Of a stretch of 64,000 nucleotides of DNA, positions 1 through 59,082 are shown in pieces. Position 1 is the first letter of the stretch, and every line of letters begins with the position of its first letter. Source of the DNA: Escherichia coli (GTDB lineage: Bacteria > Pseudomonadota > Gammaproteobacteria > Enterobacterales > Enterobacteriaceae); assembly GCF_041886205.1 (NCBI RefSeq), contig NZ_CP169031.1; one strand, 5' to 3'. The position numbers and the translations under genes are program-made. The notes below the pieces were generated by a model. That model saw only the letters and a program-made list of their open reading frames with translations, was not told the origin of the DNA and did not search any database.

Positions 1-198
1 AAGACGATCTAACTTCCATACGACCAGGGTGTCACCTCTGGAAAGCATACGCAAAACCTTTTTTAGCCCAGGGCGTTCAGTCTGTTTGCCGCTCGCCTTA
101 TCCTCAAAAATTAGCTCACATCCTGCGCTTTCAAGGGCATTTCGTTGCAAAGCAGTGTTTTGTTCATTTGTTGATACGCGTACATAGCCGATCAGCAT
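1..198 (-). CDS. cin: Serine recombinase (DNA invertase, Cin/Gin/Hin family), N-terminal 66 aa; gene continues beyond window start
   Basis: Minus-strand ORF not in track (runs off window edge): ATG at 198..196, translation MLIGYVRVSTNEQNTALQRNALESAGCELIFEDKASGKQTERPGLKKVLRMLSRGDTLVVWKLDRL has the catalytic-Ser N-terminal motif (YVRVST) of invertases/resolvases. Confidence 0.8.
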   Translation of the reverse strand, partial: MLIGYVRVSTNEQNTALQRNALESAGCELIFEDKASGKQTERPGLKKVLRMLSRGDTLVVWKLDRL

Positions 199-261
199 GA
201 TTTTTACTCTAACCGGCTCATTTAAACCGTCTGGTCTGTTTCCTCCGGCTCTACAAAAATA

Positions 262-939
262 ATGTCCATCATTTTTAATGGACACTATCGTATGAAACAC
301 CGGACCTGGATCACTGAAGCTTTACGTCTTCACTTTGAAGAACATTTACCCCGGGTTGTGGCCGGGCGTCGCCTGGGTGTACCAAAATCAACAGTTTGTA
401 GTATGTTCGTGCGCTTTCGGAGAGCTGGCCTTTCGTGGCCTTTGCCCGCAGGCATGTCGGAGCAGGAACTTGATGCCTGCCTTTACGGACAATTTTCCAC
501 GGTACCAGTCGTACGTCCTGAAAGCACCGTTATATCCGAAGCCCCCGTGGTAAAAAAACGTCCCCGGCGGCCCAACTTCCCTTATGAGTTTAAAATCGCC
601 TTAGTGGAGCAGTCACTGCAGCCCGGAGCCTGTGTGGCGCAGATCGCCCGGGAAAACGGAATCAACGATAACCTGCTCTTCAACTGGCGCCATCAATACC
701 GGAAAGGTGGCCTGCTGCCTTCCGGAAAAAATATGCCGGCACTGCTTCCCGTGACGTTAACGCCGGAGCCGGATAATAAAATCCCGGCCCCCGCACAGGA
801 ACCAGAGCAGATAAATACACCGTCCGACAGTCTGTGTTGTGAGCTGGTTCTGCCGGCCGGAACTCTCAGGCTTAAAGGTAAACTGACGCCGGCGTTATTA
901 CAGACACTTATCCGCGAAATAAAAGGGAGCAGCCACTGA
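262..939 (+). CDS. tnpA: IS66-family accessory protein TnpA (HTH)
   Basis: 225 aa; C-terminal half (PRRPNFPYEFKIALVEQSL...IARENGINDNLLFNWRHQY) resembles IS66 OrfA HTH; stop overlaps tnpB start (ATGA at 936-942). Confidence 0.75.
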   Translation: MSIIFNGHYRMKHRTWITEALRLHFEEHLPRVVAGRRLGVPKSTVCSMFVRFRRAGLSWPLPAGMSEQELDACLYGQFSTVPVVRPESTVISEAPVVKKRPRRPNFPYEFKIALVEQSLQPGACVAQIARENGINDNLLFNWRHQYRKGGLLPSGKNMPALLPVTLTPEPDNKIPAPAQEPEQINTPSDSLCCELVLPAGTLRLKGKLTPALLQTLIREIKGSSH

Positions 940-1286
940 TGATATCTCTCCCTGCAGGTTCGCGTATCTGGCTGGTTGCAGGTATCACCGATATGCGAAA
1001 TGGCTTTAACGGCCTGGCATCAAAAGTTCAGAACGTCCTGAAGGATGACCCGTTCTCCGGACACCTGTTCATCTTCCGCGGACGCCGGGGTGACCAGATA
1101 AAAGTGTTGTGGGCTGACAGTGACGGACTGTGCCTCTTCACCAAACGCCTGGAGCGGGGCCGCTTCGTCTGGCCAGTCACCCGTGACGGCAAGGTGCACC
1201 TTACTCCGGCTCAGTTATCCATGCTTCTTGAAGGTATCAACTGGAAGCACCCGAAACGAACGGAACGCGCTGGAATCCGCATATAA
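939..1286 (+). CDS. tnpB: IS66-family TnpB (IS66 Orf2-like)
   Basis: 115 aa MISLPAGSRIWLVAGITDMRNGFNGLASKVQ...HLFIFRGRRGDQIKVLWADSDGLCLFTKRLE, a highly conserved IS66 Orf2 sequence. Confidence 0.9.
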   Translation: MISLPAGSRIWLVAGITDMRNGFNGLASKVQNVLKDDPFSGHLFIFRGRRGDQIKVLWADSDGLCLFTKRLERGRFVWPVTRDGKVHLTPAQLSMLLEGINWKHPKRTERAGIRI

Positions 1287-1305
1287 CCCGTTGTAAAGTG
1301 AGGAT

Positions 1306-2877
1306 ATGGACACCTCACTTGCTCATGAGAACGCCCGCCTGCGGGCACTGTTGCAGACGCAACAGGACACCATCCGCCAGATGGCTGAATACAACCGCCT
1401 GCTCTCACAGCGGGTGGCGGCTTATGCTTCCGAAATCAACCGGCTGAAGGCGCTGGTTGCGAAACTGCAACGTATGCAGTTCGGTAAAAGCTCAGAAAAA
1501 CTTCGTGCAAAAACCGAACGGCAGATACAGGAAGCACAGGAGCGAATCAGCGCACTTCAGGAAGAAATGGCGGAAACGCTGGGTGAGCAATATGACCCGG
1601 TACTGCCATCCGCCCTGCGCCAGTCTTCAGCCCGTAAACCGTTACCGGCCTCACTTCCCCGTGAAACCCGGGTTATCCGGCCGGAAGAGGAATGCTGTCC
1701 TGCCTGTGGTGGTGAACTCAGTTCTCTGGGATGTGATGTGTCAGAGCAACTGGAGCTTATCAGCAGCGCCTTTAAGGTTATCGAAACACAACGTCCGAAA
1801 CAGGCCTGTTGCCGGTGCGACCATATCGTGCAGGCACCAGTACCTTCAAAACCCATTGCACGCAGTTATGCCGGAGCGGGGCTTCTGGCCCATGTTGTCA
1901 CCGGGAAATATGCAGACCATCTGCCGTTATACCGCCAGTCAGAAATATACCGTCGTCAGGGAGTGGAGCTGAGCCGTGCCACACTGGGGCGCTGGACAGG
2001 TGCTGTTGCTGAACTGCTGGAGCCGCTGTATGACGTCCTGCGCCAGTATGTGCTGATGCCCGGTAAAGTCCATGCTGATGATATCCCCGTCCCGGTCCAG
2101 GAGCCGGGCAGCGGTAAAACCCGGACAGCCCGGCTGTGGGTCTACGTCCGTGATGACCGTAACGCCGGTTCACAGATGCCCCCGGCGGTCTGGTTCGCGT
2201 ACAGTCCGGACCGGAAAGGTATCCATCCACAAAATCACCTGGCCGGTTACAGCGGTGTGCTTCAGGCCGATGCTTACGGTGGTTACCGGGCGTTATACGA
2301 ATCCGGCAGAATAACGGAAGCCGCGTGTATGGCTCATGCCCGGAGAAAAATCCACGATGTGCATGCAAGAGCGTCCACCTACATCACCACGGAAGCCCTG
2401 CAGCGTATCGGTGAACTGTATGCCATCGAGGCAGAGGTCCGGGGCTGTTCAGCAGAACAGCGTCTGGCGGCAAGAAAAGCCAGAGCCGCGCCACTGATGC
2501 AGTCACTGTATGACTGGATACAGCAACAGATGAAAACACTGTCGCGTCACTCAGATACGGCAAAAGCGTTCGCATACCTGCTGAAACAGTGGGATGCACT
2601 GAACGTGTACTGCAGTAATGGCTGGGTGGAAATCGACAACAACATCGCAGAGAACGCCTTACGGGGAGTGGCCGTAGGCCGGAAAAACTGGATGTTCGCG
2701 GGTTCCGACAGCGGTGGTGAACATGCGGCGGTGTTGTACTCGCTGATCGGCACATGCCGTCTGAACAATGTGGAGCCAGAAAAGTGGCTGCGTTACGTCA
2801 TTGAACATATCCAGGACTGGCCGGCAAACCGGGTACGCGATCTGTTGCCCTGGAAAGTTGATCTGAGCTCTCAGTAA
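1306..2877 (+). CDS. tnpC: IS66-family transposase TnpC
   Basis: 523 aa with N-terminal coiled-coil, CxxC...CxxC zinc motif (CCPACGG...CCRCDH) and DDE core typical of IS66 transposases. Confidence 0.9.
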
Positions 2878-3025
2878 ATATCAATACGGTTCTGACGAGT
2901 CGCTTACTTTTACTCTAATGCGTTGTTCTTATGAGTCTGCGAATTTTAAAGAACAAAGCGTTATGCACAGAAATAACAATCTGAATAGGTTCCTGCTTGA
3001 TTTTTGTTAGATCCGGGAGGAGCTT

Positions 3026-3310
3026 ATGCAGATTTTGATTTTTTTAATGTCCATTATTAGTGGAACCTATTTATTTCTTACTGGAGTTAGGCGTGGAGCT
3101 TATAAGCCATGTTTTTTACATTGGCTTGAAGCATGGCTGCTTGCCATAAAAGGTGGTTTTGTTGGTTTTTGTCTTGCAGAAGTTCAGTGGGGAAACTCAT
3201 TTTTGGATGTGGTTGCTTTTTTGATATGTAGTTGGAATAGCCATTTTGTATTAAGAATAACCAAAATATGGGTTTTTCACTTGATTTACGAATGTATTGG
3301 CAAATTATGA
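3026..3310 (+). CDS. Hypothetical small hydrophobic (membrane) protein
   Basis: 94-aa ORF in AT-rich DNA with strong RBS (GGGAGGAG, 6-nt spacer) before ATG; predicted 2-3 hydrophobic segments. Unusual composition, so could be non-coding. Confidence 0.35.
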   Translation: MQILIFLMSIISGTYLFLTGVRRGAYKPCFLHWLEAWLLAIKGGFVGFCLAEVQWGNSFLDVVAFLICSWNSHFVLRITKIWVFHLIYECIGKL

Positions 3311-3370
3311 ACAACCAGATGAGAAGTTACTTTGCATACCATTACCTCCTGACAACGTAGGAGGGAACTT

Positions 3371-3700
3371 GTGCTTGACACACAGGAATTAGCTCCAGTT
3401 GCTATTGCGCTCCTGCTTTCAGTAATTGGTGGGATAGGCACGTTCCTGATGGATGTCCGAGACGGTCGCCAGTCTGGCAATTTGTTGGGATTGGTTACGG
3501 AGATCTTTGTTGCAGTGACAGCTGGCGCGGTGGCGTACCTATTGGGGCAACACGAGGGCTGGGAGTTATCAATTACGTACTTAATGGTAACGATAGCCAG
3601 CAATAACGGTCATGAGGTGATTTCAGGGATGAAACGAGTGAATATCGATAGCATTCTGAATGTTCTTACAAGTTTGGTGAAAAAGGGAGGCGGGAAATGA
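3371..3700 (+). CDS. lydA: Holin (P1 LydA-like)
   Basis: 109 aa, GTG start preceded by GGAGGG; hydrophobic N-terminus (VAIALLLSVIGGIGTFLMD) typical of holins; first gene of lydA-lydB-hdf-darA cluster as in P1. Confidence 0.7.
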   Translation: MLDTQELAPVAIALLLSVIGGIGTFLMDVRDGRQSGNLLGLVTEIFVAVTAGAVAYLLGQHEGWELSITYLMVTIASNNGHEVISGMKRVNIDSILNVLTSLVKKGGGK

Positions 3701-4140
3701 TTGGCTGGGGTGTATGCGTTCTTGCGTTAGCCTTAGCCGATCGCTATTTGCTAAAACGCAAGGACATCACGCATTTAGAACTTGGTGATGTGGAAATTAA
3801 ACCGGGTTTCATCCGGGTGCCGTTCAAATACCGGTCTAAATTCCCGTTTTTGCGCGGCGCAACGGTCAGATATTGGATCCGCGATGTTCAGAAGCCAACG
3901 ACAGTGATTGAAGGCGAACAACGTTGTCTGACGTCGGCTGAACAGGGCGAAAACAGTGAATGGTTGTACATACCCACTGAATATATGGGTAAAGGAGAAC
4001 GGCTGTGGCATTTCAACGTCATGGTTACGCATGGCGACTCGTTCATTAACCCGTTGTATCGGATTTTCCCTGTTACTCAGCAAATCCGCAGAAGTTACGT
4101 AATAAATCTCGCACAGGATGTGTCAGATGACGAAAAATAA
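3697..4140 (+). CDS. lydB: Antiholin-like protein (P1 LydB-like)
   Basis: 147 aa, start overlaps lydA stop (translational coupling); position matches P1 lydB. Confidence 0.6.
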   Translation: MIGWGVCVLALALADRYLLKRKDITHLELGDVEIKPGFIRVPFKYRSKFPFLRGATVRYWIRDVQKPTTVIEGEQRCLTSAEQGENSEWLYIPTEYMGKGERLWHFNVMVTHGDSFINPLYRIFPVTQQIRRSYVINLAQDVSDDEK

Positions 4141-4729
4141 GTATGCAACGGTCGATTTTGACCAGGTTAATGAAAAGGGGCTGAAATCCCTTATCGCGGC
4201 GATCAATAAAACCGGTGTTACGGTAATTGAGGTTGACTCCAGCAACCGCGCAACAACGAAAGATGGCGTTAAAGTTAAAACCGCAAAGCTGGTTCTTAAC
4301 GACGGACAAATTCTTGCCATACAGGTAAACGATACTGGCGATATATCGTCTGTGAGGCTGAATGGAAAAGCTATTCCTAACGCTCAGTCGCCGGATATCA
4401 AGACGCTTGGTACCGTCATGGGGCAAGCGGCCCGCAAAAACTCCGCAAAATTCCAGAAATCACTGATCGCCAAAGCGAAACGTGTTGCCAATCCGGTAGA
4501 CAAGAAACCGGCAGTAAAATCCAACTTTCAGCGCCTGCAAGAGGCAAAACAGCGGAATGCTCAGGTGGTTGCCGCTTATAAATCAGCGCAGAACTCGGTG
4601 TCTTTCAATCAACAGCAGATCACTGATTTGCGGGCGAAGCTGGATAAGGAGACAGGCCGACTCAATAACGAAAAGGCCCGAAATGGCGAACTCAAACGCC
4701 GTCTTAAGCAACTGAAAGCAGGAAATTAA
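4127..4729 (+). CDS. hdf: Hdf (homologue of DarA fragment), Dar antirestriction/capsid morphogenesis
   Basis: 200 aa from second ATG (track ORF starts 4118); shares motif KNSAKFQ and basic coiled-coil region with the DarA encoded immediately downstream. Confidence 0.6.
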   Translation: MTKNKYATVDFDQVNEKGLKSLIAAINKTGVTVIEVDSSNRATTKDGVKVKTAKLVLNDGQILAIQVNDTGDISSVRLNGKAIPNAQSPDIKTLGTVMGQAARKNSAKFQKSLIAKAKRVANPVDKKPAVKSNFQRLQEAKQRNAQVVAAYKSAQNSVSFNQQQITDLRAKLDKETGRLNNEKARNGELKRRLKQLKAGN

Positions 4730-4730
4730 C

Positions 4731-6650
4731 ATGGAACAGTTCAATATCAATAAAGGGGTGACGATCAAACCTGGGCTTGACGTGCTTCCCCCGCCAGTGA
4801 CTGATGATGAATATCGCGCATTAATGGCCGGTGAGGACCGCTATCTGATGACGGAATCCAACACCCTGGAGGAAATCGAGGCTACGTTCTTCTATGACAC
4901 GCCGATCCACTGGTGTGCTACGGATTTACTGGAGGCGATTAGTTCTACTCGTTTGCAGCTACACCGGACCATGCAGGCATTTGTCCGGGCATTGAACCAG
5001 AAGCTGAATGGTACCGGAATCTCTGCGGGGAGTGATAAAACGGGGGATGTGGCCCAGAACGGTGCACGCGCGATCGGCGGGGCTGAAATTGGCCGGGCAC
5101 GTAACGTTAACGGGCTGCCGGTCCTGCCAGCCATTATTCCGCTCAGTGATGGTCAGACTATCAGCATTCTGTTTCATAGCCCGACAGCGGAAAACCGGAT
5201 CACCAATAGCGATACGCTGATTGCTTTCCAGTTCTTACTGAATAAAAAAGACGTTACTCATACCGTTGCTCCGATGAGTGGACGTGATATGACGCTGGCG
5301 CAGGTCACCATGAAACTTGCCAACCTTGCAGAGAAAAACTCGGCAAAATTCCAGCGTGCGCAGAAGAAGAAAAAAGCCCTGGTTGATGAAATAACCCAAC
5401 TACAGGCTGACAGTGACCAGAAAGAGGATGCCATGAGCGACCTCGCGGATCAGGTGGCAGCGGTAGAAGGGCAGAAGGTAGATCTGGAGCAGAAAATTAA
5501 CGCTGTTGCATCGGAAGCGGATTCTCTTTATGAAGAGAATGAGCGTTTGCAGACGGAGATTGATCAGCTCAATCGAACTGGTGGGCGCGAAACCATTGCT
5601 CCTGCGGGGATGACTGGTGGACACTCTCGCGCGATGACGGATCGCCTTGCAAGTATCAAAAATCGTATGCATATGAACGGGGAAGTGACGCTCAGTAATG
5701 GTGCATCAATGAAGCAATTCATTGAGGACGGTGAAGGGTATATCCAGTTAACCGATTCGGATGGCAGCGTGTACATGATCAAGGCTAAATCCATACAGGG
5801 TGTGGACATGGCAGATGCGATCGGCAAGCTGTTTAAAGCCTATAAAGCGGGTAATGTATCGGAATACCTGGTCCAACCAGAAGAACATAAACCGGAAAAC
5901 GTCGAACCTGAACCAGCGGAGGATACCGGTAGCTCTTCGCCTGAACCAGAAATCTCTGTAGGTGCATATCGATATGCCCTGCAAATGCGTCCGGCGGCCC
6001 CTGGCGCAATACCTGAAGGTAACAAAGCAATTCTGCCGCGCCCTGATGAAGGTGACCCGTATTATGAATATGCACGCTACGGCATTGCTACTTACGATAC
6101 CCCGCTTTCTGATCAGCAAATGAGTGAGTACGACCTGAAGTTATTGCCTCGCGAGGATTCTTTCGACTTCTTGGCGAAGACACTTACTAATGGTCCGTTT
6201 GGCAAATATGCACAAAAAGCTCTGGAGCTGGCCACCAGCTCACCAGACGAGTTCCGCGTAATGCTGAAAACTCAGTTTCAAAAAACTTTCCCCAATATTG
6301 CGTTTCCGGGGGGCGCTGGCACCGAGAAAATGGTGCAGAGCATGATCAATGCATTGCAGGCCGAAGTCGGTGAGATTACTCAGCCAGAACCTGCCCCGGC
6401 ACAGCCTGATGAAACGGTTAGCGAAGCAGATGCAGAGGCTAATAAAGCCATTGAATATCTCAATAACGTGATGGATATGCAAAGCACTGACATGGCGGAG
6501 ATCCGTAACGCCCGGGGTAATGTCCGGGAAGCGATTGCAGCCCTTCAGGCTGCCGGGCGTTTTGAGGAAAACGAAGAGCTGGTTAATGGCGCTGCTCGCC
6601 ACTTGGCTGATCTGCTGGTAGCAATCCAGAAAGCGGGGGTAGCGGCATGA
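4731..6650 (+). CDS. darA: DarA, internal head protein, defence against restriction
   Basis: 639 aa (same length as I recall for P1 DarA); follows hdf, precedes ddrA/ddrB; Glu/Ala-rich coiled-coil segments. Confidence 0.75.
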   Translation: MEQFNINKGVTIKPGLDVLPPPVTDDEYRALMAGEDRYLMTESNTLEEIEATFFYDTPIHWCATDLLEAISSTRLQLHRTMQAFVRALNQKLNGTGISAGSDKTGDVAQNGARAIGGAEIGRARNVNGLPVLPAIIPLSDGQTISILFHSPTAENRITNSDTLIAFQFLLNKKDVTHTVAPMSGRDMTLAQVTMKLANLAEKNSAKFQRAQKKKKALVDEITQLQADSDQKEDAMSDLADQVAAVEGQKVDLEQKINAVASEADSLYEENERLQTEIDQLNRTGGRETIAPAGMTGGHSRAMTDRLASIKNRMHMNGEVTLSNGASMKQFIEDGEGYIQLTDSDGSVYMIKAKSIQGVDMADAIGKLFKAYKAGNVSEYLVQPEEHKPENVEPEPAEDTGSSSPEPEISVGAYRYALQMRPAAPGAIPEGNKAILPRPDEGDPYYEYARYGIATYDTPLSDQQMSEYDLKLLPREDSFDFLAKTLTNGPFGKYAQKALELATSSPDEFRVMLKTQFQKTFPNIAFPGGAGTEKMVQSMINALQAEVGEITQPEPAPAQPDETVSEADAEANKAIEYLNNVMDMQSTDMAEIRNARGNVREAIAALQAAGRFEENEELVNGAARHLADLLVAIQKAGVAA

Positions 6651-7012
6651 CACTATCAGCTATTGAGTTAATGGATCTCAGCGATAAGTTGGATGCTTTG
6701 ATGTCCAAAGCGGCTACCGCGAGTGGCATGGAGTTGCTGGATATCAGCGATGAAATTGACCAGATCATGCAACAGATGGGGTACGGTGTGTCCGGCGGCA
6801 GTAGTGGCGAGGAAAAACAACCTTCGGTACATGATGGTGTGCCAAAACTGGTTGCTGATTTCCTGGCTGATAAATTCGTCGATCAGAGCACCGATGCATT
6901 TATCGGTACCTTGCAGGATTTGAGTCAATATGTTGGCACATACATCGACCTGGACCAGGTTAAACAGCACACGGCGGCATGGATAGCCGCCAACATTAAA
7001 GAGGCAGCATAA
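6647..7012 (+). CDS. ddrA: DdrA-like protein (downstream of darA)
   Basis: 121 aa acidic protein overlapping darA stop; syntenic with P1 ddrA. Confidence 0.55.
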   Translation: MTLSAIELMDLSDKLDALMSKAATASGMELLDISDEIDQIMQQMGYGVSGGSSGEEKQPSVHDGVPKLVADFLADKFVDQSTDAFIGTLQDLSQYVGTYIDLDQVKQHTAAWIAANIKEAA

Positions 7013-58928: not shown

Positions 58929-59004
58929 TGGTGCCGATTAACGGACTCGAACCGCTGACATCCTGCTTACAAGGCAGGCGCTCTACCAACTGAGCTAAAC
59001 CGGC
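58929..59004 (-). tRNA. tRNA-Thr (anticodon TGT)
   Basis: 76 nt: acceptor GCCGGTT/AATCGGC, D-arm GCTCAGTTGGTAGAGC, anticodon loop CTTGTAA, T-arm AGCGGTTCGAGTCCGTT, CCA encoded. Confidence 0.9.
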
Positions 59005-59006
59005 AT

Positions 59007-59082
59007 TGGCGATGGTGGATGGATTTGAACCATCGACCCGTTGATTAACAGTCAACCGCTCTAACCGCTGAGCTACACCATC
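59007..59082 (-). tRNA. tRNA-Asn (anticodon GTT)
   Basis: 76 nt: acceptor GATGGTG/CACCATC, D-arm GCTCAGCGGTTAGAGC, anticodon loop CTGTTAA, T-arm GATGGTTCAAATCCATC, CCA encoded; 2 nt from tRNA-Thr. Confidence 0.9.

Follow-up and report, generated by a model that had tools for sequence, protein, structure and literature searches.

Insertion sequences (IS) of the IS66 family are recognized by a tnpA-tnpB-tnpC gene trio, in which tnpC encodes a DDE transposase, and by a target-site duplication (TSD) of 8 bp. The ends of these elements are imperfect terminal inverted repeats of approximately 20-30 bp that begin with GTAA, as described in the IS679/IS66 literature. ISCro1 belongs to this family; it was first named in Citrobacter rodentium ICC168 and is spread over plasmids, prophages, and chromosomes of E. 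coli, Salmonella, and Shigella. By the naming convention of ISfinder, an element takes the name of a reference element when the DNA identity between the two is at least 95%. An IS as a passenger in a P1-type genome is exemplified by phage P1 itself, which carries a resident IS1, of another IS family and at another locus. The published ISCro1 has 2699 bp and an 8-bp TSD (PMC12115866), and a length of 2,824 bp has also been given, for the element in EC958 (PMC8764528).

The lysis and anti-restriction region in which the copy described here is found is annotated in several related records. The genes lydA and lydB depend on a late promoter for their expression, whereas lydC forms a monocistronic unit of its own, has a putative early promoter, and contributes to lysis in an accessory role (PMC9025707). 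In the records of P1, P7, and AJ000741 (the P1 darA operon), the late promoter LPdar lies between lydC and lydA, approximately 29 bp before lydA.

The DNA analysed here is a stretch of 64,000 nucleotides (64 kb), referred to as the window. It is clear that it belongs to a P1-like (Punavirus) phage-plasmid, given the collinear, high-identity match that runs across it: positions 2908-64000 are covered to 87-96%, at 97-99% identity, by RCS47, SJ46, P1 or vB_EcoM-673R5. At the left edge of the window is the 5' part of the DNA invertase gene cin (1..198, minus strand), assigned from its translation and from the annotation of P7 and P1; it comprises codons 1-66, with a product that begins MLIGYVRVSTNEQ, and the remainder of the gene is outside the window. 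On the plus strand to the right of the element is lydC (3026..3310), which encodes an intact accessory holin of 94 aa that is 100% identical to P7 LydC, and then come LPdar and lydA. P7 (AF503408) and RCS47 (FO818745) agree fully with the window in Cin residues 1-66, LydC, LPdar, and lydA, but both genomes have no IS and one copy of the octamer TTTTACTC, whereas the window has ISCro1 and two copies. In the flanks of the IS, the identity is 100% with RCS47 and 99.9% with P7. That the element is an insertion relative to P1-like genomes, as had been proposed, is confirmed by P7, RCS47, JL22, SJ46, and P1, which match both flanks as two adjoining pieces free of IS. The only hits of an Rfam search of the window were three tRNAs, far from the IS locus. 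The feature is best read, with a probability of roughly 0.9, as a single, simple transposition of ISCro1 into the cin-lydC spacer of a P1-like phage-plasmid of the P7/RCS47 type.

The element occupies positions 210..2907 on the plus strand and has 2698 bp, one base below the canonical element of 2699 bp. These ends come from independent copies, which coincide with the window at exactly 210-2907 in BLAST alignments (for example, phage PPwrbA_EC3734 and plasmid CP057733). A reading made from the sequence only had described a three-gene IS66-family element spanning 213-2918; its family and location stand, and the exact ends have to be corrected. The three genes are intact and all of their products score above the curated cutoffs of NCBIfam equivalog models. 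On the plus strand, tnpA (262..939) encodes an IS66 accessory protein of 225 aa (NF038385, 295.8 bits, cutoff of 150), tnpB (939..1286) encodes an IS66 accessory protein of 115 aa (NF033819, 128.9 bits, cutoff of 50), and tnpC (1306..2877) encodes an IS66-family DDE transposase of 523 aa (NF033517, 478.3 bits, cutoff of 180). The ATG of tnpB and the TGA stop of tnpA overlap by one base in the TGATG at 937-941, and the three genes have the same direction as lydC and lydA.

Over the 2698 bp, there are no differences between the ISCro1 of the window and the copies in plasmids NZ_CP110989, NZ_CP148316, and NZ_CP027381, which share with it the three genes, the right end, and the 8-bp duplication. 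In copies that are 99.9-100% identical to the window element, the transposase is labelled 'IS66-like element ISCro1 family transposase' by PGAP. The name ISCro1 is taken from this label, and the length and TSD of the element agree with those of the published 2699-bp ISCro1 (PMC12115866). The window copy differs from known ISCro1 in the absence of the outermost left G and in its location between cin and lydC in a P1-like element. BLAST against collections of phages, plasmids, and complete E. coli genomes gave thousands of near-identical copies; of 5426 complete E. coli genomes, 1328 contain at least 80% of the query, and a single genome can have up to 34 matching places. What is new is the site; the element itself is known and very common. 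No second ISCro1 end, as a composite transposon would suggest, was found inside the 64-kb window.

The two copies of TTTTACTC at 202..209 and 2908..2915 constitute an 8-bp TSD, given that this octamer is single in P7 and RCS47, where the uninterrupted site reads CATGATTTTTACTCTAATGCG. In the window, CATGATTTTTACTC is followed directly by TAACCGG at the left junction, and CGCTTAC is followed directly by TTTTACTCTAATGCG at the right junction. The 11-bp direct repeat described previously is real: the 11-mer TTTTACTCTAA has exactly two occurrences in the 64 kb, at 202-212 and 2908-2918, while shuffled sequences give a mean of 0.04 matches and none of 100 shuffles reaches two. An unusual TSD of 11 bp was considered and rejected, given that the TSDs readable on both sides in other ISCro1 copies have 8 bp; the extra three bases match because the IS here starts with TAA and the target happens to continue with TAA. 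Among the other ISCro1 copies for which both ends could be read in the sequence compared, most have 8-bp TSDs, and the three copies without a matching TSD would fit later rearrangement. The octamer fits the weak target preference obtained from 46 other sites, which is A/T-rich at positions 3-6 and biased to C at position 8.

The left inverted repeat (IRL; 210..230, plus strand), TAACCGGCTCATTTAAACCGT, pairs with positions 2886-2906 at 71% over 21 nt, with the outermost G absent. The right inverted repeat (IRR; 2886..2907, plus strand) ends in GAGTCGCTTAC, and its reverse complement, GTAAGCGACTC, has the GTAA tip of the IS66 family. The sequence-only reading had found no clear left inverted repeat and had considered the left end possibly degenerate or truncated. 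The repeat does exist, and its imperfect pairing is that of a normal ISCro1 IRL rather than a sign of degeneration; the suspicion of truncation was correct to the extent of exactly one base, the terminal G. While the right end of the element (CGCTTAC, reverse complement GTAAGCG) fits the GTAA tip, the left end is TAACCGG without the G, and position 209, directly before it, is a C. The comparison of ISCro1 flanks covered copies in 9 annotated records and in 38 viral contigs. A G precedes TAACCGG in all 46 distinct other left junctions, which are arranged as TSD, G, and TAACCGG and have the tip GTAACCGG; for this reason, the canonical element has 2699 bp and runs from GTAACCGG to CGCTTAC. The canonical ends, GTAACCGGCTCATTTAAACCGT and GTAAGCGACTCGTCAGAACCGT, are imperfect inverted repeats that are alike at 16 of 22 positions. 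A scan of the GTDB representative genomes and JGI metagenomes with a pattern that admits only a non-G base at this position retrieved no ISCro1 copy without the terminal G.

The simplest reading of these letters is that the left end of the window copy is missing its outermost nucleotide. The missing G could also be a sequencing or an assembly/consensus error, the true junction then being CTCGTAACC instead of CTC followed by TAACC, or the junction could result from a G-to-C change with a 7-bp duplication instead of a lost G. If the absence of the left-tip G is real, further transposition of this copy may be impaired, judging from the general importance of IS tips.

The simple transposition has placed the IS 11 nt before the start codon of cin, inside the predicted 17-bp C1 operator Op(lydC) of P7 (P7 locus 1703-1719). 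This operator, TTTACTCTAATGCGTTG, is itself only a prediction and, by our count, matches the C1 consensus at 11 of 17 positions. According to the P7 annotation, a complete copy of Op(lydC) is re-formed at the right junction (2909..2925, plus strand); the left junction holds only the first 10 of its 17 bases, at 203-212. The insertion leaves the 14 nt before cin as they were, including the GAG that is the RBS in the P1 record. Both the preservation of these 14 nt and the rebuilding of the 17-bp operator on the lydC side are a consequence of the duplication together with the chance TAA.

The two promoters predicted for cin in P1 (P1cin and P2cin) are in the spacer, with P1 feature positions taken from the GenBank annotation, and the -10 hexamer of P1cin, TAAAAT, is conserved in the P7-type spacer. 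Its homologue in the window (2943..2948, minus strand), placed by the P1 annotation and the P1/P7 alignment, is now beyond the IS and 2.7 kb from cin. A cin transcript from the predicted promoter would have to cross the 2.7 kb of the IS in antisense, so that less Cin is probably made and the tail-fibre C segment is probably inverted less often. In RCS47, cin is a frameshifted pseudogene, so the effect on cin may be moot here, given that cin could already be inactive.

On the other side of the element, lydC starts 119 nt past the last IS base (118 nt between). This gene is immediately downstream of the IS and was overlooked when lydA was taken as the next gene. In a stringent promoter scan of the window region and of native P7, no sigma-70-like site was found, and a terminator scan of the same sequences found that terminator-like hairpins are not commoner than in shuffles. 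The hits of a rough, relaxed PWM scan are weak, all of them being below the 99.99th percentile of window-wide scores. The best rightward promoter candidate of the native sequence, also weak, is inside the cin 5' end (171-201, with a -35 TTGATA at 171-176), and it now points into tnpA-tnpB-tnpC and not into lydC. For this reason, the expression of lydC is possibly changed: it may drop, or it may need read-through or a promoter at the junction. Every promoter assigned to cin or lydC is a predicted one. The lysis phenotype is expected to be slight, because LydC is only an accessory holin.

The effect on downstream genes could also have the opposite sign, if transcription leaving the right end of the IS altered lysis and dar expression, with lydC, and possibly lydA, being expressed outside the late phase. 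Two routes can be envisaged, read-through from tnpC or a hybrid promoter across the right junction. The former would be helped by the position of tnpC, which is directed towards lydC and stops 30 bp short of the IS end, and by the hairpin at the IS right end being only weak (-4.7 kcal/mol). For the latter, a -35-like CTGACG in the IRR (2892-2897) and a -10-like TCTAAT in the target (2914-2919) form a hybrid site with a PWM score of 6.2, versus 4.7 for the native arrangement. Nonetheless, such scores are weak and similar to those of many chance sites, and the rebuilt C1 operator overlaps the hybrid -10, which means that, if the operator is real, the promoter would be repressed in the lysogen. 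In addition, a passage of one report describes cloned lydC or lydA as lethal to E. coli (PMC9025707), and a stable plasmid prophage would therefore not tolerate strong constitutive expression. In a published case, ISCro1 lowered the adjacent transcription instead of raising it: its insertion in the afa regulatory region decreased the afaA transcript by 2.5 log2 and also decreased reporter activity (PMC8764528). By analogy, this suggests that ISCro1 insulates rather than activates, and expression driven outward from the element is considered unlikely.

Improbable when taken as a whole is a broader scenario in which tnpA-tnpB-tnpC would have come under an early phage promoter held by C1, with the operator broken on that side (10 of 17 bases) and the transposase phage-driven or derepressed. 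In that scenario, cin would be cut off from its promoter, the tail-fibre C segment locked in one orientation, and the host range of the phage-plasmid thereby fixed, and the tip deletion would mark an immobilised copy that is retained.

The sequence-only reading had gone further, proposing that the insertion is at the site of the late promoter of the lysis/anti-restriction operon, so that the IS would replace this promoter and might uncouple or alter the late expression of lydA and the dar genes, or provide outward promoter activity. Part of its geometry is accurate, given that the IS adjoins the cin start region and that its right end at 2907 is 463 bp before the lydA start at 3371, in agreement with the approximately 460 bp given. 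The IS is also upstream of lydA-lydB-hdf-darA and co-directional with it, and IS insertions in regulatory regions are able to alter expression (PMC8764528). The late promoter, however, is elsewhere. According to the annotation of P7, P1, and AJ000741, three independent records that all place it downstream of lydC, LPdar (-22 box AAGTTACTT, -10 TACCAT) is at 3324..3342 on the plus strand of the window, where it is intact, identical to P7, and 416 bp beyond the IS; the genes that depend on a late promoter are lydA and lydB, not the monocistronic lydC. LPdar and lydA-lydB-hdf-darA are untouched by the insertion. Because the IS is outside the interval from LPdar to lydA-lydB-hdf-darA, the holin and Dar genes are expected to stay coupled, and our best estimate is that the insertion has no effect on the late lysis and Dar functions. 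Replacement of the late promoter is thus very unlikely.

The exact junction was not found in exact-pattern scans of IMG/VR, the GTDB representative genomes, and the JGI metagenomes, nor by BLAST of the whole region against INPHARED phages and PLSDB plasmids or of the left junction against complete E. coli genomes. This absence from all collections searched, the left tip that is short by one base, and the many copies of ISCro1 in E. coli genomes, up to 34 places in one genome being a classic cause of misassembly, would suit an assembly artefact, with a repeated IS misplaced in the phage-plasmid contig, but this is hardly credible, because a perfect 8-bp duplication of a target that is single in P7 and RCS47 flanks the element, which is the signature of true transposition and not the product of a chimeric join, and because the octamer fits the A/T-rich, C-ending preference of the 46 other sites.

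The simple transposition of ISCro1 matters mostly for annotation: the late promoter of the dar and lysis genes was not hit, lydC is added to the map, and the IS has exact ends. Its importance beyond annotation is little. In practical terms for the phage-plasmid, Cin-mediated switching of the tail fibres may be impaired and the regulation of lydC may be altered. With its 2.7 kb, the resident ISCro1 is also a homologous stretch at which the phage-plasmid could recombine with the numerous further copies in E. coli, and plasmid fusion mediated by ISCro1 has been reported (PMC12115866).

A second ISCro1 is found close to the equivalent site in other P1-like plasmids. The IncY P1-like plasmid pRHB16-C13_3 (CP057733), together with three sister records, carries an ISCro1 with two differences, inserted in the same orientation and likewise before LPdar and lydA. 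This insertion arose independently, given that the copy is inside the P1-type lydC coding sequence, approximately 200 bp from the equivalent of the window site, and has a different TSD, CATGCAGG, and the complete left tip GTAACCGG. That different P1-like plasmids acquired ISCro1 in two independent events, at sites within approximately 200 bp of each other, hints that the A/T-rich DNA before LPdar is a landing zone in which insertions are tolerated. To the left of the IS in CP057733, lydC is matched for only 49 bp, and then the match to the P1 cin region ends. The source of these IncY plasmids with ISCro1 in lydC is UK pig farms.

The spacer between cin and the accessory holin gene lydC, into which ISCro1 has inserted in the window, was surveyed in PLSDB using positions 1561-1860 of phage P7 as the query. 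Only 20 of the 442 plasmids that match the 5' end of cin carry the P7-type spacer, and in most of the matches listed homology breaks off within a few bases of where cin starts, at query position 138-149. Given this low count and the place where homology mostly ends, the comparison indicates that this spacer is mosaic and varies from one P1-like plasmid to another. The boundary of this variable segment almost coincides with the insertion point of ISCro1 in the window.

An independent insertion of ISCro1 is found inside the P1-type lydC of CP057733.1 (positions 4000-6698), in the same orientation as the window copy and flanked by the target-site duplication CATGCAGG. It is also present in the sister records CP057740, CP057753, and CP057761, and the host plasmids are IncY P1-like. 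On the left flank of the CP057733.1 copy, the match to lydC extends for only 49 bp, beyond which there is no match to the cin region of P1; the early end of this match suggests a further rearrangement to the left of the element.

The target octamers of 46 other ISCro1 copies (L004-L050, taken from annotated records and viral contigs) are A/T-rich at positions 3-6, where the commonest bases are T, T, A, and A, and biased toward C at position 8. This weak target preference also accounts for the many BLAST alignments that overran the ends of the element by a few bases. Comparison of the flanks shows a terminal G at all 46 of these other left junctions, whereas the left inverted repeat of the window copy lacks it (window 209/210). 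Copies without this G were sought in two large collections, genome_contigs and metagenome_contigs, and none was found. The missing base is either a true one-base deletion of the tip or a consensus error. Published lengths of ISCro1 also conflict, with 2,824 bp in EC958 (PMC8764528) versus 2,699 bp in pT28R-1 (PMC12115866); the copies examined here favour 2,699 bp.

The closest relative of the flanks of the element is phage RCS47 (FO818745.1), where the annotation gives cin (3137-3677) as a frameshifted pseudogene in two parts. The window begins at cin codon 66 and covers codons 1-66 of the gene; the remainder of cin, outside the window, may carry the same defect.

Elsewhere, window ~27900-52800 is best covered by phage vB_EcoM-673R5 (87%), while the other P1-like records listed cover only 74%. 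The features of vB_EcoM-673R5 under this match include HsdR2 and a restriction endonuclease subunit S; a type I restriction-modification module may be part of the phage-plasmid in the window. Three tRNA genes lie on the minus strand, namely tRNA-Met (CAT anticodon, 57217-57292), tRNA-Thr (TGT, 58929-59004), and tRNA-Asn (GTT, 59007-59082).
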